A stretch of DNA of 64,000 bases from a virus: the IMG/VR virus record IMGVR_UViG_3300022074_000004, one strand, 5' to 3'. The notes under the pieces were generated by a model that ran no database searches, had not been told where the DNA came from, and saw only the letters and a program-made list of their open reading frames with translations. The translations under genes were made by a program, and so were the position numbers. Positions 3,284 through 59,754 of this stretch are shown one piece after another. The number at the start of each line of letters is the position of its first letter. The first letter of the stretch is position 1.

Positions 3284-4525
3284 GTGGCATTAAATTTTCC
3301 AGATTCTCCTGTTAATGGTGAAATATATTTTGATGAAAATTCTCAATTTTATTATTCCTGGAATGAGCAGTATCAAACATGGACGAGTTATTCTCCATCG
3401 TCAGCTAGGGGAATAAAAGTCATTGATGACATAAGTAGTCAGTTTAATGGTGTCGAAACAGTTTTCCCATTGACTGCTGCTGGAGCAACTATTTCACCAA
3501 CTACGACTAAACAACTTTTAGTTTCATTGGATGGCTTGGATCAAGTGCCAGCTGTTGATTACACTGTTGCTGGCACAATAATAATATTCACTGTTGCTCC
3601 TGCGAATGGAGTAGAATTTTCTGCTATCAATATCGGATCCTCTTTTCCTGTACTCAATAGTGAGCTTAGATGTGTAAATAATTCTCATGATAGTCTAGAC
3701 CACTTCCCAATATTTGTTGATCCAGATGGTGCGATTGGTAATCCATCTGAAGCAAGGGTTTCTACTACAAAACTTAAATTTAATCCTACTACTGGTGAGT
3801 TGTTTTCTACAAAGCTTTCTGGAAGTGGAGAGGGTATAACAAATGTAAGTATTTCTGGAATTGATCTATCAGGAGATTCTACTTTTACTAATATAATTGC
3901 TACAGATGTATCTGTCAGTAATAACATAACGAAAAAATCATATACCGTCCCATCAATTACTGTTAATACAACAGCATCTATAAATCCTGTTGAAGGGGAT
4001 TTGTGGGTTGATAATAATACAAATCCAGTAAAATTTAAAATATATGATGGAACTTCGTGGATTGAAATTGGAACATTCTCTTCTATTAATGTTGGCGATT
4101 CACTATCCCCTGGGGACATAACAGTTAATGGTGATATAACAGCGACTGGGATAACTGGTAATATAATTGGTGCCAAAGTACAATCCATTGGTGTTGTTGA
4201 GGATTTTCATGGCCCATTAAGAAGACTTCCTATTGGTAACCATTCTGATGATTATACGCTAGTTTCTACTGATGCAGGAAAACTTATCAGACAAGATACT
4301 AGTTCTAAAACAATTACTATCCCAGCAGATATATTATCTCCTGGAGATATGGTTACGATATTTAATGTTTCTGATGGTAATATTACGATTGATAAATCTA
4401 CAGTTACCCTATACAATACCGTTGATGGAACTGATGCAAATAGGACATTAGCAGCGAAGGGGGTATGTACTATCGCATGTACTGCAGCAAATGAATTTAT
4501 CATTTCTGGATCTGGTTTGTCTTAA
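3284..4525 (+). CDS. tail fibre/adaptor protein
   Basis: N-terminal MALNFPDSPVNG..Y...W; DDISSQFNG...LLVSLDG..Q.P..DYT domain; GDLWVD module; C-terminal YTLVSTDAGK...ISGSGLS domain. Confidence 0.8.
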   Translation: MALNFPDSPVNGEIYFDENSQFYYSWNEQYQTWTSYSPSSARGIKVIDDISSQFNGVETVFPLTAAGATISPTTTKQLLVSLDGLDQVPAVDYTVAGTIIIFTVAPANGVEFSAINIGSSFPVLNSELRCVNNSHDSLDHFPIFVDPDGAIGNPSEARVSTTKLKFNPTTGELFSTKLSGSGEGITNVSISGIDLSGDSTFTNIIATDVSVSNNITKKSYTVPSITVNTTASINPVEGDLWVDNNTNPVKFKIYDGTSWIEIGTFSSINVGDSLSPGDITVNGDITATGITGNIIGAKVQSIGVVEDFHGPLRRLPIGNHSDDYTLVSTDAGKLIRQDTSSKTITIPADILSPGDMVTIFNVSDGNITIDKSTVTLYNTVDGTDANRTLAAKGVCTIACTAANEFIISGSGLS

Positions 4526-4546
4526 TTTATAGAGAGGTAGCAAGAC

Positions 4547-6094
4547 ATGATGCAACAAATGCTTCTGGGTATGGGCGGTATAGTTGAATCTCCACAACTA
4601 AAGGTTTCTCGTTTAAATGGATCGCAAGTAGATGTTAGTGAACTATCTTTACATGATCTTCAAGATGGTGATATAATCGAACCAATACTTGCAGATTATT
4701 CTGTTGTAATTAAGTGTGGTGGGCAAGCCGGAGCTAGTCGGATAGAATCTCACACAGACCTCCCCCAATCTGGACTCGGTGCATGGGTTCAGGGTACAAT
4801 TAACATGAGATATGGTGCAAAATATTGTATTAGAATAAATGATGGTATTGGTGCAATATATTGGGGAGAAAGTAATACAGATAATAATTATTGTATGATG
4901 CTTGGTGCCCAGGGAGGTGATGCTAAACCAGTTTTTGGAGGATTCTTTGATAGGCGTTTTGATTTTTCAAAACACCCAACTGCGAATGGATTGGGCGGAA
5001 ATGCGGGTACTTGTGATTCAGTCGGTAATTCTGCAGGAGACGCAGGACAGGATTCTCCTGGTATAGATGGTCTTGGAGGAAGTATAAATGCTACTGGTGG
5101 AACTGGAGGAACAACTACTGGGTATCTAACGGGTAGTGGTGGAACGAAGGGTACTGCCACAAATCCAAACCCTGGTGGTAGCCTACAGAATAATACTGAT
5201 GGCGGATTTTTTAGCAAAGGTACTGCCGTATTTAGTGGTGGTGATAGTGATGGTGGAAGTGGTGGTATGGGTTATTTTGGTGGTGGCGCTGGAGGTGGTG
5301 TATTCCAGGGGTCTGGCCCAGCCCCCCGTACAGGTGGTGGTGGAGGAGGAGGAGCCTCCTATGGTAGAGGAGTTCCTGACAGTGTATTGCCAAATGAAGA
5401 TCTTGACGATGCTACTGTAACAAATCTCTCTTCTGAATTAAACACTGGTGGCACCATAGATACTGCTTTTGTGACTCTTGTGAGTGCCACAAAAACAGCT
5501 GAAAAAGGAGAACGTTATTGGGAAGGATTTGAATATGGCGGAGCCGTAATCAGTTTTGGTGGAGGAGTACCAGATGATTCTCCATTTGCGCAGAGAAATA
5601 ATAGTGGTCTTAAATATGGTTTCTACACACGAACAGGAACTCCTGCAGTTGAGAGTGGTGACTTCGGTGGAAATAATGGAATTCGGGAGAGAGAAATTGT
5701 GTGGGATGGGGAATTAGTACATAACACCGGCAATGGATCAGGAACTAACGTTGGGGCGACTGCTCCAAATGCAAATGGGTGGATAGTTGTAGATGGTTAT
5801 GCTTATAGTTGGGTAGATATTATACAAAAAGCATTTCCTAATTCTACAGCGCAACTTATCGATGGAATTACCAGTAGTGGTCAGTCGCCAAGCAATCCAA
5901 AGGGAAGTTACTATCCATGGGATGGGGATCAGTGCAATTCCTTTAATGTGATGAGAGTTGAAGAAAGATACGCCGAACTTTATACTGCAGATGAAATGAG
6001 ACCCATTGTTATTGCGGCGAGAGCACAACATATAGTAGGTACTGCACCAAATGATAGTTACCCAGAACATTTTACCAGTAGTGATCCTGTTTAG
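4547..6094 (+). CDS. glycine-rich fibre-tip adhesin-like protein
   Basis: Starts MMQQMLLGMGG; polyglycine segments (GGSGGMGYFGGGAGGG, GGGGGGGASY); RBS GAGAGG. Confidence 0.75.
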   Translation: MMQQMLLGMGGIVESPQLKVSRLNGSQVDVSELSLHDLQDGDIIEPILADYSVVIKCGGQAGASRIESHTDLPQSGLGAWVQGTINMRYGAKYCIRINDGIGAIYWGESNTDNNYCMMLGAQGGDAKPVFGGFFDRRFDFSKHPTANGLGGNAGTCDSVGNSAGDAGQDSPGIDGLGGSINATGGTGGTTTGYLTGSGGTKGTATNPNPGGSLQNNTDGGFFSKGTAVFSGGDSDGGSGGMGYFGGGAGGGVFQGSGPAPRTGGGGGGGASYGRGVPDSVLPNEDLDDATVTNLSSELNTGGTIDTAFVTLVSATKTAEKGERYWEGFEYGGAVISFGGGVPDDSPFAQRNNSGLKYGFYTRTGTPAVESGDFGGNNGIREREIVWDGELVHNTGNGSGTNVGATAPNANGWIVVDGYAYSWVDIIQKAFPNSTAQLIDGITSSGQSPSNPKGSYYPWDGDQCNSFNVMRVEERYAELYTADEMRPIVIAARAQHIVGTAPNDSYPEHFTSSDPV

Positions 6095-6096
6095 CA

Positions 6097-6125
6097 TTGA
6101 CTTGTGGATCTATAAATTGTATAAT
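6097..6125 (+). promoter_or_regulatory. sigma70-type promoter TTGACT-17-TATAAT
   Basis: -35 at 6097-6102, exactly 17-nt spacer, -10 at 6120-6125; 23 nt before ATG 6149. Confidence 0.8.
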
Positions 6126-6148
6126 ATAGTATAAGAAGATCGTTAGGA

Positions 6149-6769
6149 ATGGCTCATCAAACTATTTGGTATTATTCCTCTATGCCTGAGGAAATTGTAG
6201 ATATAATCGAGAAAGATCTTTCTGTAAACTATGATTCTAGTATGAGTGAATCCTATCTTTATGGCGGTGAGGTAAATAAGGAAAGGAGAAATTCTAAAAA
6301 TACATGGGTTCCTAGTGAACACTGGATTGGCGGATTTATGTGGCATTATATTACCAGAGCAAATAGAGAAAATTTTTTATATGATTTGAGATGTATTGAT
6401 GGGGAGTCATTGCAATATACCCAATATGGACCGGGTGAGTTTTATGGTTGGCATAATGATGCTGGTATTGCCAGTGCATATAAACCAGAGTCAGTCGGTA
6501 ATCGTATGGGGGGGAAGTCCGAAGACTTTATAAATGAGAATACCGAACTTGTCCGTAAGTTGTCTTTTGTTTTACAACTTTCTCATCCAGATGATTATGA
6601 AGGTGGGAACTTGCAACTATTGGATGAAACCGGCAAATCCTATTTTGCTCCTAGAAAAAGAGGAACTGTAATTTTATTTGATTCTCGAACACAGCATCGT
6701 GTTCTTCGTGTAAAATCTGGTCTTCGTAAATCTATTGTTGGTTGGACTGTTGGGCCGAGATGGAAATGA
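6149..6769 (+). CDS. 2OG-Fe(II) oxygenase (prolyl-4-hydroxylase/PKHD-like)
   Basis: LQYTQY..GEFYGWHND (HxD), RKLSFVLQL..PDDYEGG, FDS...HRV..VKSGLRKSIVGW. Confidence 0.9.
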   Translation: MAHQTIWYYSSMPEEIVDIIEKDLSVNYDSSMSESYLYGGEVNKERRNSKNTWVPSEHWIGGFMWHYITRANRENFLYDLRCIDGESLQYTQYGPGEFYGWHNDAGIASAYKPESVGNRMGGKSEDFINENTELVRKLSFVLQLSHPDDYEGGNLQLLDETGKSYFAPRKRGTVILFDSRTQHRVLRVKSGLRKSIVGWTVGPRWK

Positions 6770-7455
6770 AAGATATAAAATTTCAAGAATGGGCAAATAG
6801 TGGAACATCTTGGACCCGTCACGAGGAGTTTGATAAGTATGGTTATTTAATAATTCAAAATCTTTGGGATGCAAAAGATTTATTTCGTCCTGTTCCAGAG
6901 GAGCGAGGGATAAAAAGGTATTGGGGAACTGGGCAAAATCAATTTACTTTTGATCCAGCTCCAGAGCAAGTGGGGGGATCTATTGAAACATATGGTCATC
7001 CACAGTACAGAGTTATTCATTCTCAAATCAGATTATTTTTAGAATCTGTTATTGGAAGAAAGTTATATAACACCTATTATTACGATCGATTTTATTTTGC
7101 TGGGCAGAAACTTTCATGTCATGTTGATAGAGATGCCTGTGAAATTTCTGTAAGCGTAAATATAAGTACTAATATTGATCAGTGTTGGCCTATCTGGATA
7201 AAGACTCCTGATACATATGATGATAAGTTAGAGATTATTCGCCAAGGGGACAGTAGTTCAATTTGCTTATCTCCAGGAGATGGTGTTATGTATAAGGGTT
7301 GTGAGCGTCCTCATTGGAGAGATCCTCTTCCATCAAGACATGTTGGAAATTGTTACGCTGAATATCCAGATGATACGTATTATCATCAAGTATTTTTCCA
7401 TTATGTTCTTGCAGATGGGTGTAGATGTCACTGTGCAAATGATATGTCAAATTGA
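6766..7455 (+). CDS. 2OG-Fe(II) oxygenase-like protein
   Basis: TYYYDRFY..GQKL..HVDRDACEISVS, PGDGVMYKGCERPHWR, QVFFHYV; ATGA overlap at 6766. Confidence 0.8.
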   Translation: MKDIKFQEWANSGTSWTRHEEFDKYGYLIIQNLWDAKDLFRPVPEERGIKRYWGTGQNQFTFDPAPEQVGGSIETYGHPQYRVIHSQIRLFLESVIGRKLYNTYYYDRFYFAGQKLSCHVDRDACEISVSVNISTNIDQCWPIWIKTPDTYDDKLEIIRQGDSSSICLSPGDGVMYKGCERPHWRDPLPSRHVGNCYAEYPDDTYYHQVFFHYVLADGCRCHCANDMSN

Positions 7456-7462
7456 ATTCTGG

Positions 7463-7469
7463 ATAAATA
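7463..7469 (+). promoter_or_regulatory. late promoter box ATAAATA
   Basis: Intergenic, 27 nt before ATG 7497. Confidence 0.65.
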
Positions 7470-7496
7470 TTTTTATAACAAGTCTTCAAAAAATAA

Positions 7497-9428
7497 ATGG
7501 CTATAAAAGTACGGGGTCAGGTTATCATCGACGATGACCAAAATGTTAGCTTGTCTGGAAGTATGTTAAAAAAGGGACATTCAGTCCCATCTTCCGTTGT
7601 AACTGCTAATGCTCCACAAACTCCTGAGGTTGGTGATTTTTGGACTGATACCACTGGAGATAGCCCTATTCTTAAAGTTTGGAATGGAACAGAATGGATG
7701 GAATTTTCATCGGGTGGTCCTTCTGGTCCAGTTGGAGCAATTGTAGAGCAGCCACAAATGACTGCATCGAATTTGAATTATGCACCTGCAACTATTACTG
7801 CAACTCCACCTGTAATGGCAAATTCATCACTTTTTAGTAGCAAGTGGTATAAAGATGGAGTAGAGCTTGAAGGTGTAGGTGGTTCTGTATACGCAGCAAC
7901 ACAACCGGGAACTTATAGATATGAGGAAACATGGGGCGACGAAGCTGGAAACATATTGAGACCAGATGTATCCATAATTCTTTTAGATCTTGATATTCAA
8001 AGACCAGTTGTTACGGCACCATCAACTCCACTTAATCCAGCATATGCATCATTTGTTGCATCAGAACCAGCAGTTGATCTAGGAGAAGTTAATACTTGGG
8101 GAAATGCTACTTGGGAAGTCTGCCAAAGCCCTGATTTTGTTGGGGGTAGTGTTCACACAGAGACAGCTCCACTGACTGCTTCTGGGATACAATCAAGTCC
8201 ATATTTTACACAATTAGATGCAGTTACTGGATATTATGTTAGAGTAAAGTATGGATCATCACTTCCAGCTGGTGTAGAGTCTGAGTTTTCTAATCCGGCT
8301 TATTTCACAACCAGCGAAAGTTACAATTCAATTCAAAGTGTTACTGCCCTTAATGAAGGAAATTCTGTAACATTTAGCATTTCTACAGATGGGGTTCCTT
8401 CTGGAACTACATTATACTATACTATAGAAGGAACAGTGAATGCTTTAGACTTTACTGATAATGCTACTCAGGGAAACTTTTCAATTCAGAATGATAGCGC
8501 ATCAGTGACAAAAACATTGCTGGAAGATGGAACGACTGAAGGCATCGAAACTTTTGTATTCAAAATTCATACCGGTAGCTATACTGGTCCCGTAGTTTAT
8601 CAGTCATCAACAGTTACTGTATATGATACGTCTAAAACAGTCTATATTGGAACTTATAAATTCAAATCTCCTAGAGGATACTCAACTACTAATGGAAACT
8701 GGACTGTGCCAGCGAATACCACTTATATTCAAGTAATGGCATGGGGTTCCGGTGGAGAGCCAGATGGATATCCAAACGGATTCCCTGGTGGTAGTGGAGG
8801 CGGTGGCGGATTTGCCCAAGCTGTTATTCCTGTAACTCCGGGTGAAAGTCTTTCGGTAGCAGTTGGTAACTCATCTAACAATGGTAGAGGTAGTAACTCT
8901 TTTGGTGGTAATGGTGGAGGATTTTCTGGTATTTTCAGAGGAAGCAATCCACTAATCATTGCTGGAGGTGGCGGCGGCGGTGCTGTTAATAATACCAATT
9001 ATGGTGGAGCAGGTGGTGGATACAGTGGCGGATCAAGCTCAGATGGTTACGGTGGAGGATCACAATCTGGACCAAGTCACAGGTATTTGCAAGGTATCGC
9101 TGGTGGAGGAGGTGGATATTACGGTGGGGATGGTGGGTCATGGAGCAATGCTGGTGGAGGAGGATCTGGATACATAGGTGCTTCAGGAAATCTCCATACA
9201 ACTATGTCCAATGGAAGTGGAAGAAGTCCTGGTGGAACCGGTCATGCAGATTATGACCAATCTTATGCTAGTTCTGGAAGACAATATGGTTACGGTGGAA
9301 GTGGTAATAATGGTGGTGATGTATCTTATGGTAGTGGTTTGCTTGTTATTCATTGTTTAAATAGCGAGTATAATCCATCAAGCAATCCTGTTCTTCCTCC
9401 TCAAAGAAATATAATAGCAACTTATTGA
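7497..9428 (+). CDS. fibre/adhesin protein with Ig/FN3-like, Calx-beta-like and C-terminal glycine-rich domains
   Basis: MAIKVRGQVIIDD N-terminus, GDFWTD module, YYVRVKY, NEGNSVTF...TEGIETF, WGSGG...GGGGGF...VTPGESLSVAVG Gly-rich domain. Confidence 0.8.
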   Translation: MAIKVRGQVIIDDDQNVSLSGSMLKKGHSVPSSVVTANAPQTPEVGDFWTDTTGDSPILKVWNGTEWMEFSSGGPSGPVGAIVEQPQMTASNLNYAPATITATPPVMANSSLFSSKWYKDGVELEGVGGSVYAATQPGTYRYEETWGDEAGNILRPDVSIILLDLDIQRPVVTAPSTPLNPAYASFVASEPAVDLGEVNTWGNATWEVCQSPDFVGGSVHTETAPLTASGIQSSPYFTQLDAVTGYYVRVKYGSSLPAGVESEFSNPAYFTTSESYNSIQSVTALNEGNSVTFSISTDGVPSGTTLYYTIEGTVNALDFTDNATQGNFSIQNDSASVTKTLLEDGTTEGIETFVFKIHTGSYTGPVVYQSSTVTVYDTSKTVYIGTYKFKSPRGYSTTNGNWTVPANTTYIQVMAWGSGGEPDGYPNGFPGGSGGGGGFAQAVIPVTPGESLSVAVGNSSNNGRGSNSFGGNGGGFSGIFRGSNPLIIAGGGGGGAVNNTNYGGAGGGYSGGSSSDGYGGGSQSGPSHRYLQGIAGGGGGYYGGDGGSWSNAGGGGSGYIGASGNLHTTMSNGSGRSPGGTGHADYDQSYASSGRQYGYGGSGNNGGDVSYGSGLLVIHCLNSEYNPSSNPVLPPQRNIIATY

Positions 9429-9434
9429 TAAATA
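9428..9434 (+). promoter_or_regulatory. late promoter box ATAAATA
   Basis: tgATAAATA overlaps the upstream stop, before GTG 9459. Confidence 0.6.
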
Positions 9435-9846: not shown

Positions 9847-10248
9847 ATGGCAGACTATAAAGTCAAGATGAATTCTTATAATGTTAGATTGAATTCTAAC
9901 CAAACTCATGATGTAGAATCCTCTGCAGGTCAGAATGAGGATAACAATGAGGTTGAATATAAGTCAAAGATGAATTCTTATAATGTGAAGCTGAGTACTA
10001 GTGCTCCACATAAGGCTTCGCAGCAAGTTAATTCACATTCTCTTCTTTCAAATTTGTCTGATGTTGAGACACCTGATTTAGGAGCTCTGGATCCAAATGA
10101 TGAAAATGTTTTGGCATATGATCCAGAAACTAATAGATACAAAGTAGTTTCAATTGATAATATAATAGCAGAATCTATTGAAGACGAAGTTATAGAGATA
10201 GTTCAAAATAATCTTAATATTGATGTAATTGATGCTGGGGAGTTTTAA
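9847..10248 (+). CDS. short fibre connector protein ending IDAGEF
   Basis: LSNLSDV...VLAYD fibre motif; C-terminal DAGEF. Confidence 0.7.
   Translation: MADYKVKMNSYNVRLNSNQTHDVESSAGQNEDNNEVEYKSKMNSYNVKLSTSAPHKASQQVNSHSLLSNLSDVETPDLGALDPNDENVLAYDPETNRYKVVSIDNIIAESIEDEVIEIVQNNLNIDVIDAGEF
9865..9986 (+). repeat. exact 20-bp direct repeat AAGATGAATTCTTATAATGT (9865-9884 and 9967-9986)
   Basis: Seen directly; encodes KMNSYNV twice, 102 bp apart. Confidence 0.9.
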
Positions 10249-10299: not shown

Positions 10300-13011
10300 A
10301 TGACTGCACCAATTATTCTAATCAAGAGGGGTGCTTCTGATCGTCTTCCTGGTCTTCGGGGAGGGGAACCCGGCTTCACAACTGATAAGTATGATTTTTA
10401 TGTTGGATTAAATTCTACAACACAAGACAATCAATTTATTGGATCTGGTAGATATTGGGGGCAAGAAGATGGGACAGAAGCCCTTTCACTTAAATTAGTC
10501 GATAAGGATGGATTAAATAGTATTAATATTAAAAGTCCAGACACCTTAACAGGAATTACAACGTATACTTTCCCTGCTTCTCCAGAACAGGATAAGGTTT
10601 TATCAACCGATGTAGATGGAAATCTATTCTGGAAAGAGGATGGGGGAAGTGGAGAGAAAATTGTTTTAGGAAATCCTTCCGATGGCAGCTACAGTGAAGG
10701 TGCCATTGGTATTAATAGTGAGACAAAGGTTGTTGATAGTATTGACAGCTTAAATGAACTTGCTCTTAATATGCTGAAGGGAACTGCGGTTTCTGCTCTT
10801 GACTTTACCTCAGATAAGACATCTGGCGGATCGCCACTTACGGTGACTTTAACTCCAACTGTTGTTGGAACCGCTGATTCATATCAGGTTGATTGGGGGG
10901 ATGGTACAGTCGATTCCAATTTGACCCACACATATGTGGATCCTACTGGTGGTCAATTTGATGTTTCTATAATTGCCACGAATACGAGTGCTATTGCGAA
11001 CTCTGCTGGAAGCACCTCAGAAGCGACCAAAGAAGATTATATTACTCTATTCACTCCAGATCCAGCAGTAGGTTTTGGTGCATTTTCTGCCGCTTCTGGG
11101 GGATCTGCATTAGATAACTCTCAGCTTTTTGTAATTGAAGGCCAATCAATTTATATTGAGAATACAACAACAAATACCTCAAATGCAGATGTAACTTATA
11201 CGGTAACTTGGGGTGATGGTAACACTGATTCTGTCGCTGATGATGATGCAGCAGGTGGTGTGAATGGGGGTAGACTTGAGCATACTTGGGCAGATGGTAG
11301 CAATACTGGTGCAGGTATGGATACTCTGGAATTTGAATTGACTTCTCATAGCACTTCTGATCCAGATATTCTTCCAGTATCAATTCAGGTTCCAATTAAG
11401 GTTTATGATGATTCTCCAGTTGACCCAGATGGATTGGATTCAAAGACTTTAACAGAAATTCCAAGTGTGGGTGAATCTCCAAAACTTGCTGCTGAGTTCT
11501 CTGATAATACAACTGGAACCACTTTATCTGCTGGAGATAGTGTTAATCGTGTAAGTGGTGGTAATATTGAATCCACTGCGATAGATTCATTTGCATTTAC
11601 TAGTGATGGTGGAACACTTACCGCAAGTGTTAATGGAACCGCTGATGGTTCTGTTAACTTTACAACTGCAGGTGACGAGAGTGGAACTTATGCCAGTTTA
11701 ATTGTCACAGAGGAAAGTGATTATCAATTACTGGATACCGCAGGTAGCCCAACAACATTTGAATCTAGTATTTACTATCCAGGTCTTCATAAAGGATTTA
11801 AGGCAAAGATCTTTAAGCCAGCAGCAGATATTCTGGAAGGTGTAAATGACTTCCAACTTCAACACAGTACAGATGGTAGTACAAATGTTGTTGAATTTGT
11901 TAAAGATGACTTAACCTCTAAGCCATCTAGTGGTGTTGCCTCCGCATCTATTGCAGAAACCACATCCAATTTACGTTATATCTCTGGTATTCCTCATTAC
12001 GATTCCGGCTCTGAATTAACTTTGTCTGGAGTGAAGATTAGTAATTTAGTTGGTCAATGTTATACAGATAGAGGAGATATTGTAGAAGTTCAGAGTGATG
12101 AAGGTGTTGTTGATAACTTAGAATATACTTATCTTGAAATTGATGGTGCAACATCAATGTTGAGTGGTGGATTTCCAAAGGCAGATACTGGAGTTGGTGG
12201 GCCATATTCATTGGGGACATTGACTGTTCCTGTTACTTCTGGTGATGTGCGGAGTGAAGGAACCATTAAAGTTCGTGCAAAAAATGTTAATGGTGTTGGA
12301 AACTTTAGTAATAGTGTTTCTAAAGTTCTCAATGTCCATACTGCAGATCAATCTGGTATTAGCGAGATTGCAATTCCTGTAGCAGATTCTCTTGGTGACG
12401 GAACTTACACTGATGATGGTATTCGGGTATTTGACTTTAGTTTAGAATCTACAGATACTCCTTCATACTCTGTAGTTAACTTCTATACTAATGATGTGTA
12501 TTCAGAAACTTCTGATCCAGGAGTTGAAGGGACTTCAGAATCATCTATTCGTTTTGGACAAATCATTCATGATGTAAATGATTACAGTGATTATCTTCCT
12601 GTTGGGCCTGATAGAAGTTTGGATACTGGAACTCAATATTTCACATTTGCTTTCCGAAGAAAGTCAGTTGCAAATTTTGATATCAACATAACAAGTAGTG
12701 GAATTAGTGGTCTTTGGATTGCTGCTCCTGGAACTAGTATAGATAGTACAAGTGGTTTAAATGGATGGTTAAGTTCAAGTGATAAGTACGAAGGTATTGG
12801 TGTTCCTGGTAGTGGAACAGGTGGTAATGGCAGCGACGGTTGCGCTATTATGGACTCTGATATGATTGTGGCAGATACTTCCTTAAGTGGTGGTTATACG
12901 ATGACCTTGGGTGGAGAAAACACAAGTAACTCTACGGATAATGTTGTTCTTGTTCGTATTGCATTGGCAACAGGACAATCTATTTCATCACTTAGCATCA
13001 CGGAGGATTGA
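10300..13011 (+). CDS. virion structural/fibre protein with PKD-like domains
   Basis: N-terminal IILIKRG..LPGL..GEPGFTTD; two PKD-like WGDG motifs (YQVDWGDGT, YTVTWGDGN); acidic, S/T/G-rich. Confidence 0.8.
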   Translation: MTAPIILIKRGASDRLPGLRGGEPGFTTDKYDFYVGLNSTTQDNQFIGSGRYWGQEDGTEALSLKLVDKDGLNSINIKSPDTLTGITTYTFPASPEQDKVLSTDVDGNLFWKEDGGSGEKIVLGNPSDGSYSEGAIGINSETKVVDSIDSLNELALNMLKGTAVSALDFTSDKTSGGSPLTVTLTPTVVGTADSYQVDWGDGTVDSNLTHTYVDPTGGQFDVSIIATNTSAIANSAGSTSEATKEDYITLFTPDPAVGFGAFSAASGGSALDNSQLFVIEGQSIYIENTTTNTSNADVTYTVTWGDGNTDSVADDDAAGGVNGGRLEHTWADGSNTGAGMDTLEFELTSHSTSDPDILPVSIQVPIKVYDDSPVDPDGLDSKTLTEIPSVGESPKLAAEFSDNTTGTTLSAGDSVNRVSGGNIESTAIDSFAFTSDGGTLTASVNGTADGSVNFTTAGDESGTYASLIVTEESDYQLLDTAGSPTTFESSIYYPGLHKGFKAKIFKPAADILEGVNDFQLQHSTDGSTNVVEFVKDDLTSKPSSGVASASIAETTSNLRYISGIPHYDSGSELTLSGVKISNLVGQCYTDRGDIVEVQSDEGVVDNLEYTYLEIDGATSMLSGGFPKADTGVGGPYSLGTLTVPVTSGDVRSEGTIKVRAKNVNGVGNFSNSVSKVLNVHTADQSGISEIAIPVADSLGDGTYTDDGIRVFDFSLESTDTPSYSVVNFYTNDVYSETSDPGVEGTSESSIRFGQIIHDVNDYSDYLPVGPDRSLDTGTQYFTFAFRRKSVANFDINITSSGISGLWIAAPGTSIDSTSGLNGWLSSSDKYEGIGVPGSGTGGNGSDGCAIMDSDMIVADTSLSGGYTMTLGGENTSNSTDNVVLVRIALATGQSISSLSITED

Positions 13012-13016
13012 AGATA

Positions 13017-16998: not shown

Positions 16999-16999
16999 A

Positions 17000-49186: not shown

Positions 49187-49218
49187 TCTAGGTAATGCCT
49201 AGTAAAAAATTAACGAAA

Positions 49219-49521
49219 ATGGCAATTAAAGTAAAGGGTAATCAGATAATTGATAATAGTGAAAATATCAATATTTCTGGTGTTTGCACGGCTATGGAAT
49301 ATCATGGAGATGGTTCCAATTTGACTGGAATCTCCGCTGGTATTGGTCCAAATGATAATGTTAATACAACGGGAATAATTACTGCATCTTCATTTAGAGG
49401 GGACGGATCACAACTAAACGGTGTTGCAGCTAGTATTCCATATCAAATTCATATTTCCCCAAATGATCCTTCCAATGCTCTTGGTAGTGATAATGATCTT
49501 TGGATTAAATACGAAGCCTGA
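49219..49521 (+). CDS. short fibre adaptor (100 aa)
   Basis: MAIKVKGNQIID N-terminus (shared with 7497 and 28399, supporting this start over 49195); two GDGS.L.G repeats; ends GSDNDLWIKYEA. Confidence 0.8.
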   Translation: MAIKVKGNQIIDNSENINISGVCTAMEYHGDGSNLTGISAGIGPNDNVNTTGIITASSFRGDGSQLNGVAASIPYQIHISPNDPSNALGSDNDLWIKYEA

Positions 49522-52500: not shown

Positions 52501-55500
52501 AATAATGATATCAATACTGCATATTCAATCAGCTTAAGAAATTCATCACACACCCACATTGGAGGTGGATATGTGTGGGAAGTTACAAATATTAATGCAT
52601 GCGAAAGAACGGTAGATGGCTCAGGTAATTGGATTCCTAAACTGTCTGAGATTGTTAAAAAAGATACAAGTGGAAATGTTTTATTAACTATTCCAAACCC
52701 AACATCAGCACAAGCATTATATACTTTTAATAGTTGGAATAATACCACTTTTAAGACTGAATCTGACTATGGTTTAAGTCTTTTCGGTAATAAAATGAAG
52801 TTCTGGTCTGGTGGATTTATCACCGAATGTCTTAATGATGGCTCATATTTTGATGGTGGTTGTTTAATCGCTTATGATTTTGATGGAAATCAGCTGTGGA
52901 AAAAGAGATATGGTAATGGCACTGCATCAAATGTGATAGACTATGGTAGTAATGTATATCGTCATTTGTGTTCGCACAATATTCATGATATTGATGAAGA
53001 AAATGGCATTGCAGTTGTAAGTTATGCCACGAGTGTATCCCAATCATCGGGGTATGTCTCTGTATATTTCGCTTTCGCTGTCATTGATCTTCAAACTGGT
53101 AATCAATTGGGGAATGCGATAAAATCAAATATTCTATGGTATAGATTCTCCTATAGTAATTATGAAAATTTGGTCAAATTTGCTAAGTGTGCAGATGGCC
53201 ATATTTTAATCAGCCATGGAGTTCGAGGCTATAGTGCTGAACCAGGAACTTTTGAAGTATTTGAGTGGAATAGTGCTACAAATAGTGCGACCACAATACG
53301 GAGAGCTGATAATTCATATGCAAGAAGGGATTTGCTGCCATATGTCTCTACTAGTGCTTCTGCTGAGGAGAAAAATAGACAGGATTATATGGATCCTGAA
53401 ATGACAAACCCACATCATATAAAATATCAGTATGAATATGTTCAACATGCATCGCAATTCTATGGCCAATCAAGAGCAGAATGGGCGATAAGCATGGGTG
53501 GTGGAAGAATTGCAGTTCCTGTTAGAAATGCTTACATTTATGATAATGATCACTCTACACAGACCTCTGTTGATAAAGGTCGTAAGATGCTTTTAATGAC
53601 CTATGATCTAGATCCTGCTAATGATGTATATTTTGAGCATGGCGATACCACCTCAGCATATATTAGGGAACCACTTGGATTTGTTACTAAAGATGGTTTC
53701 TTTGTCAATCCTACTAGTGGAACATCGGACTTCCAGCCTACCAAATATAGCGGTGGGGCCAGGATGAATCACCTGAGTTACATTGAAAATACTAGTGGTT
53801 TCCTATACACCGGTAAAGCCAGTAGCAATACCACATATACTGTATACGACACAGAAACCCTGACAGAACGTGATACTTTTGTATTTAATCCCGCAAATAA
53901 TGATACTCAACTTTCTAGCGGAAGTGTTGATGAGTTCGAGCAATTTTTTGCAAATAGATATATTTTGAAGAGTTATGACCCAACCAATGGTACATGTCTG
54001 TTTACTAACTTAAGTAATGTATATGAGGGCAGAAAAGCAAATCAAGCTGAATTTGTGACTGCTCCAGCCAGTGACACTGGTTACTCGGCTATTACGGGTT
54101 CATATGCAGAACCAAACGTATTGGTTACTATCACTTGCCCACCTCCGGATGATATGGCAAGTACTATTAAGTCAGTGTCCGTTCAAGAATTGCCAGTATC
54201 TACTTCAAGTTCTTACGCTATTGATTTTGCAAATAAGGAATTTTCTCTCGAATTTGATGCAAAAGTTGACGGAGGAATTGATTGGGCAAACTTCGACCCA
54301 AGTATACCCCCACCAACATTAACTCTCAACTGGGGTGTTAGACACTATACAAGATCCTGGTATGCAAACTTCTCAACTGGAGTATCTAAACTTTATTGGG
54401 TTGGTGATGATGGGACTAAAGTCCAAATTAGATCCTATCAGACTAGTTCACAATATCAACCTTGGCAATCTTACAGCGAAGATTTAGGGGCTCTTGGTAT
54501 TTCAGGAACTGGATATTTTGCTATTGGTTTTACTCAACCTCGTAACTACAATTGTGACCCTCAATACGATGGATTCCAGTTGGTAAATGCAGATGGGGAC
54601 ATTGTATACGATTATAAACCACAAAACAGAGGAACGTTTGGAGCAGGTTTGGGATTTAGACAAGCTAATTCTAGTACCAGCAGATATTCTCCTGGCGGCG
54701 GTAATAGTGTAGATGACATTCCAACAAGTTGGAAAACTACTAATCTTGCGCAGGGAAGTAGTTCTGGTACATTTAACTATGATGCTTATGGTACTCCCAC
54801 TTATTACAGCGGACCTTCAGGTAGCCTTATTAGTGGGTCTAATGGATATTATATTTATTTTGAACCTGGATATTATCCACGTTATTCTTCTGGTGGTCAA
54901 TATACATTCTGGTTTAGAACTGAAGGAACTGTTAGCTCGACAGATCCAACTGCAACAAGTTATGTTTTCCCACCAGAACCACATTTCCTTATTGGTGATG
55001 ATAGGGAGAATTCTTCTGATCCTGGATGGGCATTATCTCTTGAGTGGAAAGATAATAGTCAAGATGAAGTTGTAATTTCATATGGATCTTCTGATGAGTT
55101 ACGCATTCCTTTAGGTTTCCATATATTTGACGCAAATCCATCTACTCATACATTTAAGCTTTCACGAGATTCTTATGATGGAGATTTAGTACTTTCTGTT
55201 GATGGATCGCCTGTATATACCGAGCCCTCTCGTGCCAGTGGTGAGAATTCTATTGATTTGCATGCAAGTCGCAATCTGTTCCTTGGTGGATATGATGGTG
55301 AACTGTCAAACTTATCAATCGAATTCCCAGATGGACCTAGAGTAAACAGAACAGCTATTGATCTCGCTGATTCTGCATTCTTGGTTAATGCCGATAATGG
55401 ACCATATATTCATAGAACTAATGATACATCATATTATTATGATATAAATGGAAAGATTAGACATACTTTGATCAGTCAAAGTAAAAACCCATCTTCATAT

Positions 55501-58500
55501 TATGGAATGAGTGAAGGCAATCATACTGTTATGAGAGAAAGCCCAGATGTTGCTTCAGTTTATGAGCCAACAGCAAATACTCCATCACCAGCGTCTACTT
55601 TGGCTGCTAATGGTGATGATATGGGCAAAGTTAGTATTTTAAATGCAGACGGGGAACTTATTAAAGATGTCACTCAACTGTCTTATGCAAGTGAGAGTGG
55701 TGATTATCCATCTACTTATACTTCAAATAGTTTTGGCACATCAGTTTCAGCTACTGATACTACATTAATGGTTGGCGAACCAGTAGGCAAGAATGTATAC
55801 GTATATGATGGTGAAGGTAATCCATTAACAAAATTATCTAGCGATACAGATAATTTTGGCACATCTGTGGCTTCAAATGGAATGGCATATGTTGTTGGAG
55901 CTCCTAAATTCATAGAATATGGAAATACTACTGTTGAAAGTATTGAGGTTAAGAGCTCTACTCCTTCTAGTGCAATTACTGAATTTTCTGAGGATAATGG
56001 ATGGCAGAAATATAGCAATCTTCCAAATCCAAGCTATGATTGGTGTGATATAGCATATGGAAATGGAGTTGTGGTTGCTGTATCTAGATTAGAAGATGCC
56101 AATTATATTCCAAATGTAGGGGACATGGTTTTCTCTACTACTAATTTGGGAGCTCTTCCGGGGGTTGATCAAGGAAACAATAGTTATCTTGTAAAGGAGG
56201 ATATAAATTGGGATATTTCTAATATGATTGGAGGAACATCTGCTAATCTGCCTTACAACTGGGCTCCATCTACAGATGGTAACGGTAACTTTGATGGCAG
56301 AAATAATGGCTGGAAAGATCACTTTGGTTGGACAGGAAATACTGGACACTTGGCATATTCCACTGATGATGGAGCAACTTGGTCAACTATGACCGATCCG
56401 AATAGCCTTGGATATGATTTTGTGTTCAACTGCATTGCCTTCGGAAAAGGTGGTGATATTCCAAATGGTAAATTTGTTGCATTATGTCGTGGTGGCAACA
56501 GAATTTATACCTCTGAGGATGGAATTAATTGGGAATCTAATGACAAACCTCGGGATGGTTCGCCTGAAATGCCATATGTGAACAATTACAATAGGGGCAC
56601 AATCTACGGCACCTATAACGCCTCCGGTGCCTCCCTTTTCAATGTAATGTGGGATGATATTTATTGGTGTCCTGTTAGAGAAGAATTTATTGCTATGGGA
56701 TATGCACCATATCCTTCAATCGATAGAGATAAGTATGATGCGACTGGATTTAATCATTGGTATGAGTATTCATATATATACAGAAAAGTTTCAAAAGATG
56801 GTATTACTTGGTCTCAAATGAATGTTGGAGGTGATGGGACCGTATATTCTGATGGCACTCGTGTCAGTACTGTATTCATGGATGCTAGCCTAAATGGTCA
56901 AAAAGTAATCACTGGTATACCACACTATCAGGGTAGTTCTCCAGATGGATATGTTTTACGCCACAAAAATGGTTCTGCAACTATAAGCAGATGGATGGAT
57001 ACGTCTGCTAGCTACAATCGTAGTATTATAGCAGATACTCTGCAACACACCTCAAACAAAGAATTGTTTGATTTTGCATATAATTATGCATCTGTTGACC
57101 TTGACAAGGTTATGGTTGCAGTTGGTGATGATACAATTTTATATTCTGTTACTGGTAGCAGTTGGATGCATGCAGATTTCCCATTAACACCTTTCTCAAA
57201 TGGTACAGCAAGAAAATCTGGTGTAATTTCTGGAAATGAATCTATTGGAAAATTCCGCACTGTAACATATGCAAATGGATACTGGTATGCCACTTGTGAT
57301 CCTAGCACTGCAAGCAACGGAACTACCACAGTATCAGGAAAAGACGCTTGGTCTCTTGACGGTAAGAATTGGTATTATGTATCGCAAAATACTCATTTAA
57401 ATGACATATTTAGAAATGTATCTTTCAGTGAAGGGAAGTACGTCTCGATTTATGATGGATATAATGGTGATTTTGCAATAACTGAAACACCTCGTACTCC
57501 TATACCTGTAACTACAATTACTCTTCCTGATGACCTTGTTCATAGACAATCTGATAGCACGCTACTCGGTGGATATACTTTCACTGGTTTCTTAAGTATT
57601 AATGATACTATTTCTTCATTAGATTCTAGTGCTAGTGGACAAGTTTTTGATATATCTGGAGATGAAATTGCTGTCTGGAATTACAGTGGTGATTTCTCTG
57701 GCCAGCCACTTAAACTGAGTGAGGCTGTAAGTGTATCTTCCGGTGCTGGTGGTGAGGTTAGTGTTTATAACACAGATGGTACTTTAAGAAGTACAATAGT
57801 TGGTGCTTCATATGAGAATTTCGGAAAATTTGTTGGTCTCTGTCACGATGTTGTTCTTATCACTTCAAAGGATCGTTTATTTGGATATGATCTTGATGGA
57901 AATCAATTGTACAATCTTTATTTTGGAGATTCTAAAGGTAATACCAAAATTAGATCATTTGCTACATCTGAAGATGATACAACTATTGCTATCGGATTAT
58001 ATGGTGATTTATGGCGTCAGGTTGATAGCAGCTCTTCATATTCTAATCATGAATTTGATGATGCAAATAAATTAGAGCAAACAAGTATTGGTTATGTAAA
58101 ACTCTTTAAAACATATGGAAGCGGTATTTCTCCTACAAAAGTCTTAAGGGCCAGATATGCCACTGAGGCTGATTACTTTGGTCATGATATTGCAATCAAT
58201 GATGGCAAGATAGCTGTTCTTTCTCCTGGTCGTGAATATGGCTGGGGTTCTGAAAATGGAGCTCCAAAAGCTAGAATCACTCTCTTTACTATAGACGGTA
58301 GATTCATATCCTCAATTGGAGGAAAAGAATGGACAAAATCATCACCTCTTGCTCTTGACAGTCCATTTGGTCAAGATGACAAACTTGCATTACTTGGAAA
58401 TTCATTGGTTGTTACTCATCCATCTAATGGAAACCGCACAGTTTATGCAGAGAGTGATTATGAATTACCTATTTCAACTGCTGGAGCACCATCTATAGGA

Positions 58501-59754
58501 TTTAATCCTGATTCACAAAACGGTGCTTATATGTCTACAAATAATCCAAAGACATTTAAAGTTACAGTTGGACCTGCCCAATTCGTTAGAGATTATTATG
58601 ACGATGGTATTGCTATTGAAAATAGAAATGTATACTATATTGATGGTGTACCAACTAAGCACAATCGTTATACCAGAACTGACAACAGCTACGAATGGGG
58701 TTATACAAGTGATGCAAATAGAACTACACTTGATCTACAGTTTGGTACTACACATATCTTCGATTTATCAGATCCGTCAAACCTTGGTCACCAATTTGAG
58801 TTACAGGGAATGTATAGTGGATTTGATAGAGATTGGGATAGCACAACATATCCACAACTTCCATACGTATTTCACGGCGATTGGGTTAAATACGGAGTTG
58901 ATGGAACTCCAGGTGCTCGCTTAGAGTATACTGTTCCTACAATAGCTGAAGGTGGAACCCCAGGTCAACCTGGTGCTTGGACTGGGGGCGGATATGTTTA
59001 CTGGAAGTGTGCTCTTCATGATGATGCAATGGGCAGAGGTGATTTTAATTTCACTACAGATGCTCCACAGGTGGAAGGATCGGCATTTGAATTTAGTGAC
59101 GCTGATGATTTCACTATTGAAGCTCAATTTAAACTTGAAAATACTAGCGGATACAAGTATCCCAAGTCAATGTTATTGATTGGTTCAAATAATGAGGGTG
59201 ATAATTATGGATTTGCCGCTATTTTAGAATCTGAATTTGATGAAGACGCAGAACTTCATATTCCTGCTAAGAGATTGAAATTTACAAATAATGGCCCAAG
59301 TGGTCTCGTATCGGATTGTTATGCAACTCTCCCAGATAATGACAATGAGTGGCATCATATTGTAATCATGAGATCAAGTGGCAAATTATCCATTATATAT
59401 GATGGTGTAGAAATTTATAGTAAATCTGATCTCCTTGTATATCCTCAAAGTGGTCCAATTTATATCGGTGGAACGCCTGAAGGATATCTAGATTTTGAAG
59501 GAAATATTATTAACATGAGAATATCCAGAATTCAGAGATATGACTCAACTGAAACATACGTATCACCTAAGAACGTATATGTGAAGATTAATGGAGAATG
59601 GAAAAATGTTGATGATATCTTCGTCAAGGTCAATAATGAATGGAAAAATGTCATCAATGATTCCTTGATTCCAAAAGTTGATGGTGGCTGGAAGAAATAT
59701 GATCCAGATGGATCTATTATTACACCACAAATTGTTGGTGCTGTGAAAATTTAG
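49567..59754 (+). CDS. giant multidomain virion adhesin (3395 aa): propellers, LamG-like, CBM-like, cupredoxin-like domains
   Basis: RBS AGGAG; FG-GAP-like repeats; YSTDDGATW/TSEDGINW/SKDGITW boxes; DFTIE...WHHIVIMR...IYIGG...FEGNI..MRI; C-terminal VKINGEWK repeats. Confidence 0.88.
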   Translation: MTSSYENLPPTSDLVDDSDVMFMLGTSTQTALPDAYGSMAIESVGNVSVETDSPFSSAGRYIGSLTRPEDILSFDSGFGKIVLGTDGSAHIYNSTLSHETSVSPSDSTSGFGKKIVIAYDRIYVGADSSIFIYNLDGTGEQKISETGIGANFVVQSDRILAPVVGGNVSHIYHIDGSNKVSTSAFTNATSDYGAYGLGVCEASNGSYKFAYVGDPGYNGDRGAVLAINLEIYSSPYSTLITGEVSNQLGINIPDIRNSGSNWNGRIGSAGGYLPQGSRFGTVIACEDFAGVYGNSTGFVAISAPFANSMYDYDHGDDWDYDTQMPWGKTDATRLYKGCVFYFKTEAGYTNTNRDRIGFKTQSNQSNFVISSVGHVNKVSQISSHVDYHSFGESMAYRDGKLIVGAPYDGEAGARAGAVFVFDTEAETMDVSSRPATESEEYHLKYNPVRFVNKFVGDEFDNTTENYGLSVAVGGELMLSKGSDNNVYVHSTEGFFAKDWYGNYVPSDEKVVEADSGRSVGAVNDSEAGTAVSATDTKLFLSVPKHNETGGVHVFNFYKSLNVSEVITIPYAGSAYDPMDIDSDNDLVATVDSSGAITLTALSTGVVQTTINSGVSSPIEISIGSGRVALTNSSGLVKVYNTNGSFVKDLSDGNSGSDVKISIDGYIGTSSKTEGTAHIFDLDGTKSTTFTSVGGDDIKLTDSHIFIADSSANSIHQYNKDGSWGLVRTITNAEQDFGKSVDANSSYLVSVANSILFVYALSDGSLVSSTTVSPSSQVYSDNGVSQAEALASDYTTSTPVTLTASAGKIEIDILSAPVGEFSGPTGANVDPVDIGAGINGIPDISAVDSSYKDSNGDLLHNTHSFIGFDESVKINASDNITLDASTGSIVYSSLGAAYFDPKMEFGKVYKVTVDVERMDSTVEMKTCDVTGVTQGASSKLAIGPAGKTTGLITPPSADQTYLAIDNISAFDPNNVTATVNNDINTAYSISLRNSSHTHIGGGYVWEVTNINACERTVDGSGNWIPKLSEIVKKDTSGNVLLTIPNPTSAQALYTFNSWNNTTFKTESDYGLSLFGNKMKFWSGGFITECLNDGSYFDGGCLIAYDFDGNQLWKKRYGNGTASNVIDYGSNVYRHLCSHNIHDIDEENGIAVVSYATSVSQSSGYVSVYFAFAVIDLQTGNQLGNAIKSNILWYRFSYSNYENLVKFAKCADGHILISHGVRGYSAEPGTFEVFEWNSATNSATTIRRADNSYARRDLLPYVSTSASAEEKNRQDYMDPEMTNPHHIKYQYEYVQHASQFYGQSRAEWAISMGGGRIAVPVRNAYIYDNDHSTQTSVDKGRKMLLMTYDLDPANDVYFEHGDTTSAYIREPLGFVTKDGFFVNPTSGTSDFQPTKYSGGARMNHLSYIENTSGFLYTGKASSNTTYTVYDTETLTERDTFVFNPANNDTQLSSGSVDEFEQFFANRYILKSYDPTNGTCLFTNLSNVYEGRKANQAEFVTAPASDTGYSAITGSYAEPNVLVTITCPPPDDMASTIKSVSVQELPVSTSSSYAIDFANKEFSLEFDAKVDGGIDWANFDPSIPPPTLTLNWGVRHYTRSWYANFSTGVSKLYWVGDDGTKVQIRSYQTSSQYQPWQSYSEDLGALGISGTGYFAIGFTQPRNYNCDPQYDGFQLVNADGDIVYDYKPQNRGTFGAGLGFRQANSSTSRYSPGGGNSVDDIPTSWKTTNLAQGSSSGTFNYDAYGTPTYYSGPSGSLISGSNGYYIYFEPGYYPRYSSGGQYTFWFRTEGTVSSTDPTATSYVFPPEPHFLIGDDRENSSDPGWALSLEWKDNSQDEVVISYGSSDELRIPLGFHIFDANPSTHTFKLSRDSYDGDLVLSVDGSPVYTEPSRASGENSIDLHASRNLFLGGYDGELSNLSIEFPDGPRVNRTAIDLADSAFLVNADNGPYIHRTNDTSYYYDINGKIRHTLISQSKNPSSYYGMSEGNHTVMRESPDVASVYEPTANTPSPASTLAANGDDMGKVSILNADGELIKDVTQLSYASESGDYPSTYTSNSFGTSVSATDTTLMVGEPVGKNVYVYDGEGNPLTKLSSDTDNFGTSVASNGMAYVVGAPKFIEYGNTTVESIEVKSSTPSSAITEFSEDNGWQKYSNLPNPSYDWCDIAYGNGVVVAVSRLEDANYIPNVGDMVFSTTNLGALPGVDQGNNSYLVKEDINWDISNMIGGTSANLPYNWAPSTDGNGNFDGRNNGWKDHFGWTGNTGHLAYSTDDGATWSTMTDPNSLGYDFVFNCIAFGKGGDIPNGKFVALCRGGNRIYTSEDGINWESNDKPRDGSPEMPYVNNYNRGTIYGTYNASGASLFNVMWDDIYWCPVREEFIAMGYAPYPSIDRDKYDATGFNHWYEYSYIYRKVSKDGITWSQMNVGGDGTVYSDGTRVSTVFMDASLNGQKVITGIPHYQGSSPDGYVLRHKNGSATISRWMDTSASYNRSIIADTLQHTSNKELFDFAYNYASVDLDKVMVAVGDDTILYSVTGSSWMHADFPLTPFSNGTARKSGVISGNESIGKFRTVTYANGYWYATCDPSTASNGTTTVSGKDAWSLDGKNWYYVSQNTHLNDIFRNVSFSEGKYVSIYDGYNGDFAITETPRTPIPVTTITLPDDLVHRQSDSTLLGGYTFTGFLSINDTISSLDSSASGQVFDISGDEIAVWNYSGDFSGQPLKLSEAVSVSSGAGGEVSVYNTDGTLRSTIVGASYENFGKFVGLCHDVVLITSKDRLFGYDLDGNQLYNLYFGDSKGNTKIRSFATSEDDTTIAIGLYGDLWRQVDSSSSYSNHEFDDANKLEQTSIGYVKLFKTYGSGISPTKVLRARYATEADYFGHDIAINDGKIAVLSPGREYGWGSENGAPKARITLFTIDGRFISSIGGKEWTKSSPLALDSPFGQDDKLALLGNSLVVTHPSNGNRTVYAESDYELPISTAGAPSIGFNPDSQNGAYMSTNNPKTFKVTVGPAQFVRDYYDDGIAIENRNVYYIDGVPTKHNRYTRTDNSYEWGYTSDANRTTLDLQFGTTHIFDLSDPSNLGHQFELQGMYSGFDRDWDSTTYPQLPYVFHGDWVKYGVDGTPGARLEYTVPTIAEGGTPGQPGAWTGGGYVYWKCALHDDAMGRGDFNFTTDAPQVEGSAFEFSDADDFTIEAQFKLENTSGYKYPKSMLLIGSNNEGDNYGFAAILESEFDEDAELHIPAKRLKFTNNGPSGLVSDCYATLPDNDNEWHHIVIMRSSGKLSIIYDGVEIYSKSDLLVYPQSGPIYIGGTPEGYLDFEGNIINMRISRIQRYDSTETYVSPKNVYVKINGEWKNVDDIFVKVNNEWKNVINDSLIPKVDGGWKKYDPDGSIITPQIVGAVKI

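Follow-up and report, generated by a model that had tools for sequence, protein, structure and literature searches.

Tail-fibre parts and tips of marine phages seem to be exchanged at fixed joints, one known from T4 and one apparently undescribed

How the products of successive tail-fibre genes are joined to one another, and at which points such fibres exchange their parts, is the question raised by a stretch of viral DNA of 64,000 nucleotides (nt) from IMG/VR record IMGVR_UViG_3300022074_000004 (hereafter, the window), with structural genes of an uncultured phage arranged as a block on one strand. The initial annotation of positions 3284-59754 had noticed, at successive gene boundaries, a distinctive terminal domain in one protein (a socket) and a short terminal peptide in its neighbour (a plug), and had read these as at least five orthogonal pair types, numbered here 1 to 5, linking the fibre genes into a hierarchical or branched appendage. 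Our results confirm the observation in part and lend partial support to its interpretation. Judging from the sequences, the phages apparently swap segments and tips of their fibres at fixed joints, of which one is the known gp36-gp37 joint of phage T4, while the other, a C-terminal gp9/XD1-like domain combined with an N-terminal address peptide on exchangeable tips, is apparently undescribed.

On balance, we favour a model in which several tail fibres of the phage are put together from separately encoded segments, with at least two classes of standardised junction between them. In class A, a tail of the form (I/V)-x-D-x-G-x-(F/Y)-stop would meet an N-terminal domain of ~45 residues (..I-x-F-K-R-S/G..G-E-L/P..) on the protein that continues the fibre, and this joint would be used twice in the window, from a 133-amino-acid (aa) to a 903-aa protein and from a 647-aa to a 539-aa protein. 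In class B, a distal, all-beta C-terminal domain of the gp9/XD1 type would be combined with a short hydrophobic-then-glycine peptide at the N-terminus of the next product, IQQMLLGxGG behind the domain of a 413-aa protein and MPIIGSFGAGS-like behind relatives of the domain of a 769-aa protein. The peptide would dock on or next to the distal face of a trimeric socket, plausibly by strand addition, and unrelated tips, many of them Gly-rich, would thereby be mounted on a constant fibre end and swapped by recombination at the gene boundary.

A megablast search of 20 kb of the window against cultured phages gave zero matches, and the nearest cultured relatives of its individual modules are T4-like cyanophages (Kyanoviridae). 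A complete IMG/VR contig of 207.7 kb (G001) encodes proteins in common with the window that are ~60-95% identical to its own. All strings quoted in the initial annotation are present in the sequence, and, save for three corrections given below, at the protein ends claimed. All genes discussed lie on the + strand.

The gp36-gp37-type joint

By its sequence, pair 2 is identifiable as the joint between the C-terminal end of T4 gp36 and the N-terminal end of gp37, and here the proposal that the window generalises the T-even fibre chain is supported by comparative evidence. The small 133-aa protein (9847-10248) ends in a gp36-type tail, VIDAGEF (nt 10228-10245), and is followed by the 903-aa fibre segment (10300-13011), whose N-terminal ~50 aa (MTAPIILIKRG..GEPGFTTD) form a divergent gp37-N-like head (type A) that is also found on a 630-aa protein of S-B05. 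The 647-aa fibre segment (13008-14951) ends in MIDAGFF (nt 14931-14948), and the 539-aa fibre protein (15367-16986) starts with a gp37-type head of ~45 aa (type B, MTNPVIKFKRSAVPGKRP..GELALNT) that includes the IKFKRS string. For this second pair the motifs were correctly noted; the two genes are not strictly adjacent, since a coiled-coil open reading frame (ORF) of 61 aa (14957-15142), whose position between these two genes is conserved, intervenes.

Using tblastn, the first 52 aa of the 539-aa protein retrieved 957 phage records, mostly gp37 N-termini or distal subunits of the long tail fibre, with 47.5% identity to T4 gp37 (E 8e-5) and 61.5% to S-B05 (E 3e-14), and this protein has a version of the gp37-type N-terminal domain (..IQFKRS..G.RP..L.EGELAIN..). 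The gp36 of T4, a trimer, attaches to the N-terminal region of gp37 (PMC3004832). The tails agree as well: gp36 ends in QDFGYY in T4, QDFGYYS in S16, IIDFGEF in PEi20, VIDFGTF in JSE and EDFGYY in VR7, and the register D(-5), G(-3), aromatic(-1) is common to both window tails and to the gp36 of these five T4-like genera, the closest likeness being that between PEi20 (IIDFGEF) and the window (VIDAGEF). An IMG/VR survey with the gp37-type head gave 462 relatives; for the locus searches alignment A1 was too divergent, and the narrower A2 worked. In 86 related loci, duplicates removed, a ..KR(G/S) head came no more than 400 nt after 114 of the 130 ORFs that end in D[GAC]G.[FY], and after 66 of 1572 other ORFs (Fisher p ~5e-111, a figure inflated by ascertainment and by kinship among the loci). 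The order of tail gene and head gene recurs in S-B05 and in relatives that are only 39% identical; homologues of the 647-aa protein end in IDGGFF, IDGGSF and the like and precede gp37-N-like genes, and the G001 homologue of the 133-aa protein ends in IDGGLF. Moreover, the head of the 903-aa protein is a separable module, since a 1511-aa relative from another contig (L003) aligns to this protein only from residue 51 on. The idea that this relative could be a Rosetta-stone fusion of the 133-aa and 903-aa proteins was rejected, its head being replaced by an unrelated shaft.

Several observations nevertheless count against a strict reading of this joint. Compared with T4 gp36 by BLASTP, neither the 133-aa protein (E 0.56) nor the last 200 aa of the 647-aa protein (E 0.47) shows homology. 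Typical cyanophage cassettes hold up to four class-A tail proteins per two heads, a gp37-type head in S-PRM1 comes after a fibre with an S74-like end, and the G001 homologues of the 133-aa and 903-aa proteins lie ~19 kb apart, in an interval where a new adaptor (MAIKIQG.. to ..EGGVFE) and, behind it, a ..VRIARGT.. head are found. Because up to four tails accompany two heads, the simple reading of one plug for one socket fails. The tails preceding the two head types are also indistinguishable; therefore class A is better described as a generic connector class with no visible orthogonal code, and the five orthogonal codes of the initial annotation are not supported.

Homologues of the intervening 61-aa ORF occur in S-B05 (78 aa), in G001 (59 aa) and at most of the IMG/VR loci. 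In most cyanophages they have a K/T/S-rich linker and then a D(G/A)GxF tail of their own; in the lineage of the window a His-rich end replaces this tail (..HEQNHEHHHG; ..EHHHHHHG in G001). The ORF might encode a chaperone similar to gp57A, an additional subunit of the joint or a protein that holds the place of the head. Another candidate joint, absent from the pairs listed initially, is the boundary between the 903-aa and 647-aa proteins, whose genes overlap (13008-13011): the first ends in ..SLSITED and the second starts ..MAILQEQKVDYLWKK. The 39%-identical relatives (L003-L007, IMG/VR contigs of up to 110 kb) keep this boundary as ..SLNIGQT followed by MAIADEQKLDFLWKK. These contigs, which encode a 1511-aa fibre, a 454-aa protein ending in IDGGSF and a protein of more than 2800 aa starting with MSTIRLKRSAEPGK, belong to a different phage group and place the gp36/gp37-type joint outside the cyanomyovirus cassette context.

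Terminal beta-domains and N-terminal peptides

Pair 1 is a widespread and apparently undescribed junction, to judge from sequence comparisons. The 413-aa fibre protein (3284-4525) ends in ..FIISGSGLS and carries a candidate socket, all-beta and XD1/gp9-like, in its last ~110 residues (nt 4193-4522), and the Gly-rich 515-aa protein that follows (4547-6094), a candidate tip, starts with a putative plug of ~11 residues, MMQQMLLGMGG (nt 4547-4579). A search of IMG/VR with the last ~106 residues of this fibre protein gave more than 436 relatives, and a hidden Markov model (HMM) built from 56 of them matches residues 315-424 of the 413-aa frame (E 3e-41). These relatives end in (Y/F/V)ISG(A/S)GL(S/T), and 0-45 nt further on the next gene begins M..IQQ(M/I/L)(L/F)LG.G. 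A strict form of the plug motif, QQ[MIL][LFMW][LV]G, was found in 51 of 79 next genes and in none of 568 background N-termini, and a loose form in 68 of 79 and in two of 568, respectively. The window plug itself (MMQQMLLG) scored 26.0 with a position-specific scoring matrix (PSSM), above all 1515 background N-termini.

The rest of the downstream proteins is not conserved. Past residue 16 they fall into ~27 families unconnected by BLAST, from 181 to more than 999 aa in length, as illustrated by the contrast between the Gly-rich body in the window and a protein at another locus (L190) built of a six-fold IDYxTIxxxGDAxDFG repeat; a conserved socket domain is thus combined with a conserved N-terminal peptide of 6-10 residues on unrelated bodies. 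This peptide is encoded by 34 distinct 18-nt versions using all Leu and Gly codons, and therefore it is under selection at the protein level. The junction is found in podovirus S-B28, siphovirus S-CBS2, whose fibre also starts with a gp37-type head, and the phiKMV-like SnaP-R1. The 515-aa protein has no sequence match in Pfam, PHROG or PDB (the latter searched to E 1), and the profile of the pair-1 socket retrieved nothing significant among PDB sequences.

The model of the pair-1 socket (AlphaFold2, pLDDT 94) is that of an XD1/gp9-like beta-sandwich of nine strands. Its structural matches are the Pa223 spike and a baseplate protein of KP1 (Z 12.2), the tailspike of Solidus (10.9), TSP4 of CBA120 (residues 54-183, Z 10.2, root-mean-square deviation 4.1, 101 aligned), CpaA (9.9), T4 gp9 (66-166, Z 9.0) and T4 gp10 (28-149, Z 8.8), and the next, unrelated matches are cupredoxins (Z at most 3.6). 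The predicted fold therefore places this domain within the fibre and baseplate toolkit, which is no proof of a socket role.

In pair 4, the 769-aa fibre (28399-30708) starts with an MSIKIKGNQII head and ends in ..WTVLAAVNNFAPAA, its last ~139 residues (nt 30289-30705) being the candidate socket, and the giant 6098-aa protein that follows (30809-49105) starts with MSLQGITGLGGG, a candidate divergent plug. The socket belongs to phrog_5906 (HMM E 3.2e-43), has 261 relatives in IMG/VR and is also present in S-MbCM6, S-CAM22, P-SSM7 and roseophage CRP-738. Relatives end in (F/Y)TVLA(A/S)QTQFA or similar; for the locus searches alignment A5 was too divergent, and the narrower A6 worked. At 47 of 56 distinct junctions the next gene starts with MP(I/L)(I/L)G(S/T)FG.. 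or ..PIFSQFSSGG.., compared with 0-1 of 334 in the background. Structural modelling (AlphaFold2, pLDDT 82) recovered the same nine PDB entries and ranges as for pair 1 (Z 7.5-4.8, then 3.3), and the two sockets are probably of the same fold; a profile-profile comparison between them detected no relation (probability 12%). The first 100 aa of the 6098-aa protein have no relatives among cultured phages. Two T4-like cyanophages, S-MbCM6 (L275, 3208-4423) and P-SSM7 (L276, 3830-5077), have two tandem paralogues of this socket, annotated as 'sericin 1 precursor-like', only the second of which precedes a plug-bearing Gly-rich gene.

Plugs follow the type of socket. Gly_rich_2 bodies carry the pair-1 plug behind pair-1 sockets and the pair-4 plug behind pair-4 sockets (this domain scores 32.1 in S-CBS2 gp053 and 122.7 in a 588-aa protein at L285, the 515-aa protein of the window giving no such match), and with low-complexity masking only two matches between bodies cross the types. 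The 297-aa protein of P-SSM7 and S-CBS2 gp053 gave an overall BLAST E of 0.98, despite a similar C-terminal WG.GR.FPSTNV stretch. Plug identity and socket identity are correlated even among unrelated bodies (r 0.34, p 2e-4), for which linkage is an alternative explanation. As general context, resistance-breaking mutations in P-SSP7 map downstream of the fibre gene (PMC5520035); genes 36-41 of this phage contain neither socket type.

A number of points must be set against this reading of class B. The loci share ancestry and were retrieved using a single partner of each pair, and the adjacency and covariation statistics are inflated by linkage, because the 3' end of the socket and the 5' start of the plug are contiguous DNA. 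The MSLQGITGLGGG start in the window fits the PSSM of the pair-4 plug weakly, within the top 2.4% of the background, and the N-terminal conservation behind pair-4 sockets may partly be plain homology, since 39 of 56 downstream proteins belong to one broad Gly-rich family (YLVVAGGGG signature). The fold matched is XD1, described as a probable spacer and as glycan-binding in CpaA and StcE, instead of the proven docking modules XD2 and XD3 (PMC8825819), neither of which appeared among the fold matches of the terminal domains, the parts that were folded. None of the tools used demonstrated binding; a complex prediction, made with alignments and without controls, for three copies each of the C-terminal 110 residues of the 413-aa protein and the first 45 of the 515-aa protein scored 0.02 and counts neither way.

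From these patterns we infer the physical docking, its stoichiometry and the role of the downstream proteins as host-contacting tips of the virion, as well as any branching of the fibres or true orthogonality of the connectors. A bolder version, which we hold tentatively and judge somewhat improbable, is that N-terminal address peptides (IQQMLLGxGG, MPIIGSFGAGS, PIFSQFSSGGGG and variants), each matched to a subtype of gp9/XD1-like socket, could mount dozens of unrelated tips across all three tail morphologies of marine phages and would form, together with the gp36/gp37 joint, a partly orthogonal connector set for multi-segment or branched fibres.

Alternative explanations and the remaining fibre genes

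Of the five pairs first proposed, the junction classes of pairs 1 and 2 and the socket of pair 4 lie far above background, and pairs 3 and 5 lack such support. It is likely that pairs 3 and 5 are coincidental, as pair 4 of the window may also be. The RELSQ, MAIKVxG and MSLQGITG heads would then anchor fibres to the baseplate or to other sites whose genes lie elsewhere, and the C-termini next to them would play no part. Regarding pair 3, RELSQ is an N-terminal module of ~55 aa on proteins of 138-3720 aa (P-SSM2, P-SSM5, S-SRM01, DSL-LC02 and Bellamy), in the window on a 3720-aa fibre (17098-28260, starting MAFNRELSQ), which ends with a Peptidase_S74 domain (PF13884, an intramolecular chaperone; residues 3635-3686, 50.5 bits against a cut-off of 22). 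Elsewhere this head follows a tail spike (P-SSM2), a sugar epimerase (S-SRM01), a collagen-like fibre (DSL-LC02) or an oxygenase (Bellamy), and ATEGQ is in none of these four neighbours. Nor is ATEGQ a terminal domain, as had been supposed: it is an internal domain of ~66 aa common to the 539-aa protein (~residue 349) and the RELSQ-bearing protein itself (~residue 1867). The view of terminal modules as connectors with exchangeable tips thus stands for pairs 1 and 2, less firmly for pair 4, and falls for pair 3.

Pair 5 was to link the 108-aa adaptor-like protein (49195-49521; MAIKVKGNQII head, two GDGSxLTG repeats and tail ..DNDLWIKYEA) to the giant 3395-aa protein (49567-59754), which contains a LamG domain. 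Its VKxNGxWK repeats are not at the gene boundary; they lie at the C-terminus, ~3340 residues past the start. In the 413-aa and 643-aa proteins, the DLW and VKxNGxW motifs occur in cis at a distance of 13 residues; they are therefore halves of one common mini-domain, and these might also complement each other in trans. Neither end of the 3395-aa protein has cultured-phage relatives, the one locus from an IMG/VR scan was irrelevant, and in a metagenome scan the sole match was to an internal, propeller-like region; as relatives of these ends are lacking, pair 5 is not refuted. Metagenome contigs related to residues ~57-192 (L360-L372) start with MKI(S/Q)GV(K/N)I..GG or MIIQGLTLNGG, which resemble MAIKVKGNQII and MSLQGITGLGGG and may be another family of N-terminal heads.

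The MAIKVxG head itself (~25 residues) starts three window proteins, as noted initially (7497-, 28399- as MSIKIKG, and 49195-), and one protein of G001. It was found nowhere beyond the window and G001, the 80 IMG/VR loci retrieved having matched through the internal FHGDGSNLTG repeat instead. Upstream of the three carriers lie, respectively, genes for an oxygenase, for a fibre that ends in S74 and for the 6098-aa protein; because these are unrelated, the head probably docks at a site encoded elsewhere. The 129-aa counterpart of the 108-aa protein in G001 combines the same head with a tail of the gp36 type (EIEGGVFE), and ..VRIARGT.. opens the gene behind it. As for pair 4, the weak fit of MSLQGITGLGGG to the plug profile agrees with coincidence; on the other side, the 769-aa socket is a confident family member, and its relatives nearly always precede a plug-bearing gene.

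For class B, the downstream genes might instead encode fibre-assembly chaperones comparable to T4 gp38, Tfa of Mu and P2 or Pam3 gp25, the N-terminal peptide being a handle by which the chaperone holds the last fibre domain while this folds, to be released afterwards. A gene for such a chaperone is typically the one immediately after the fibre gene, and its product binds the distal part, Pam3 gp24-gp25 forming a 3:3 complex (PMC9608196), and the glycan binding known for the XD1-type fold (CpaA, StcE) implies that the 'socket' might be a receptor-binding end. However, the downstream proteins are large, often Gly-rich and divided among many families, and it is the fibre end that is conserved, whereas chaperones usually co-vary with tips that are themselves variable. 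In addition, the 643-aa fibre (7497-9428; MAIKVRG.. head of ~25 aa) itself carries Gly_rich_2 in cis as a distal domain (PF21722, residues 399-613; 27.8 bits against a gathering cut-off of 24.3), which suggests that this domain is a structural tip. We therefore regard the chaperone explanation as unlikely, and the mounted tips of class B as preferable.

Weaker still, and in our view very improbable, is the notion that the gene boundaries are units of recombination or linkage only, with termini inherited as one block and not touching in the virion: the short spacing of socket end and plug start and the ~19 kb between the class-A tail gene and presumed head gene of G001 would fit it, and covariation and adjacency statistics cannot separate linkage from co-evolution, but the plug is kept at the amino-acid and not the DNA level, the gp36-gp37 interaction of class A is physically established in T4, and the motifs sit at the extreme termini of the proteins, like docking peptides.

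The fibre repertoire differs strongly between the window and the otherwise near-identical G001. The ~19 kb that separate the G001 homologues of window genes 9847-10248 and 10300-13011 hold other fibre genes (encoding 129, 957, 161, 651, 150, 623, 226, 290, 2077 and 662 aa), the 643-aa gene is missing from G001, and this contig breaks inside the giant RELSQ gene. Between the fibre genes of the window (324-7455) lie others whose products resemble sulfotransferases and 2-oxoglutarate (2OG)-Fe(II) oxygenases, and similarly, in Bellamy, S-PRM1, S-MbCM6 and S-SRM01, RELSQ or other fibre genes adjoin oxygenases, epimerases and glycosyltransferases.

Significance and relation to known systems

The host range of marine phages is set by fibre tips, which are almost wholly unannotated. 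If the proposed model is true, a constant socket and an address peptide of 6-12 residues would mark where the fibre ends and the exchangeable tip begins, and receptor-binding proteins could be found in metagenomes by a simple rule, as the gene following ..ISG(A/S)GLS or ..TVLA.QTQFA at a stop. Hypervariable islands downstream of tail-fibre genes would also be explained, and host-range work in laboratory phage-host pairs would gain defined splice points. Recognition of the gp36/gp37 joint, in cyanophages and beyond, allows multi-gene fibres to be ordered from sequence alone, as in the order 133 aa, 903 aa, 647 aa, 539 aa given by the joints in the window.

The T4 gp36-gp37 system has in common with the window the head (homology over ~45 residues of the 539-aa protein), the tail register and the order of tail gene followed by head gene. 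It differs in that the tail-bearing bodies of the window are not detectably related to gp36 and that a small coiled-coil ORF is intercalated. Unlike T4, the window uses this joint twice in series, and G001 three times, and cyanophage cassettes contain extra small tail-bearing proteins. No homologues of gp34 or gp35 were identified. The chain-like fibres of podophage A1002 and Pam3 gp24-gp25 were considered as parallels and set aside, as the architectures differ.

Class B resembles the gp38 system of T2, T6 and S16 in having a separate, hypervariable and often Gly-rich protein encoded directly downstream, which would sit on the fibre tip through its N-terminus. Nevertheless, no sequence relationship between the 515-aa protein and gp38 was found, the fibre end is gp9/XD1-like and not a gp37 tip, and the attachment would be a short peptide common to ~27 unrelated families. 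With Pam3 gp24-gp25 and the Tfa proteins of Mu and P2 the likeness lies in gene adjacency and in dependence on the distal part of the fibre; in class B the roles of conserved and variable partner are exchanged, and its downstream proteins are much larger.

Finally, the nine-stranded fold connects the pair-1 socket with the XD systems (CBA120 TSP4 and T4 gp9 and gp10; branched receptor-binding complexes of Ackermannviridae, G7C and their kin). In these, XD2 and XD3 are the proven docking modules near the N-terminus of the platform and XD1 is regarded as a spacer (PMC8825819), whereas the XD1-like domain of the window stands at the extreme C-terminus of the fibre, and their partner is a folded N-terminal domain, whereas the putative partner here is an N-terminal peptide of 6-12 residues. 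Even so, the two are alike in concept, since both would rely on conserved modules for mounting and swapping several receptor-binding proteins.

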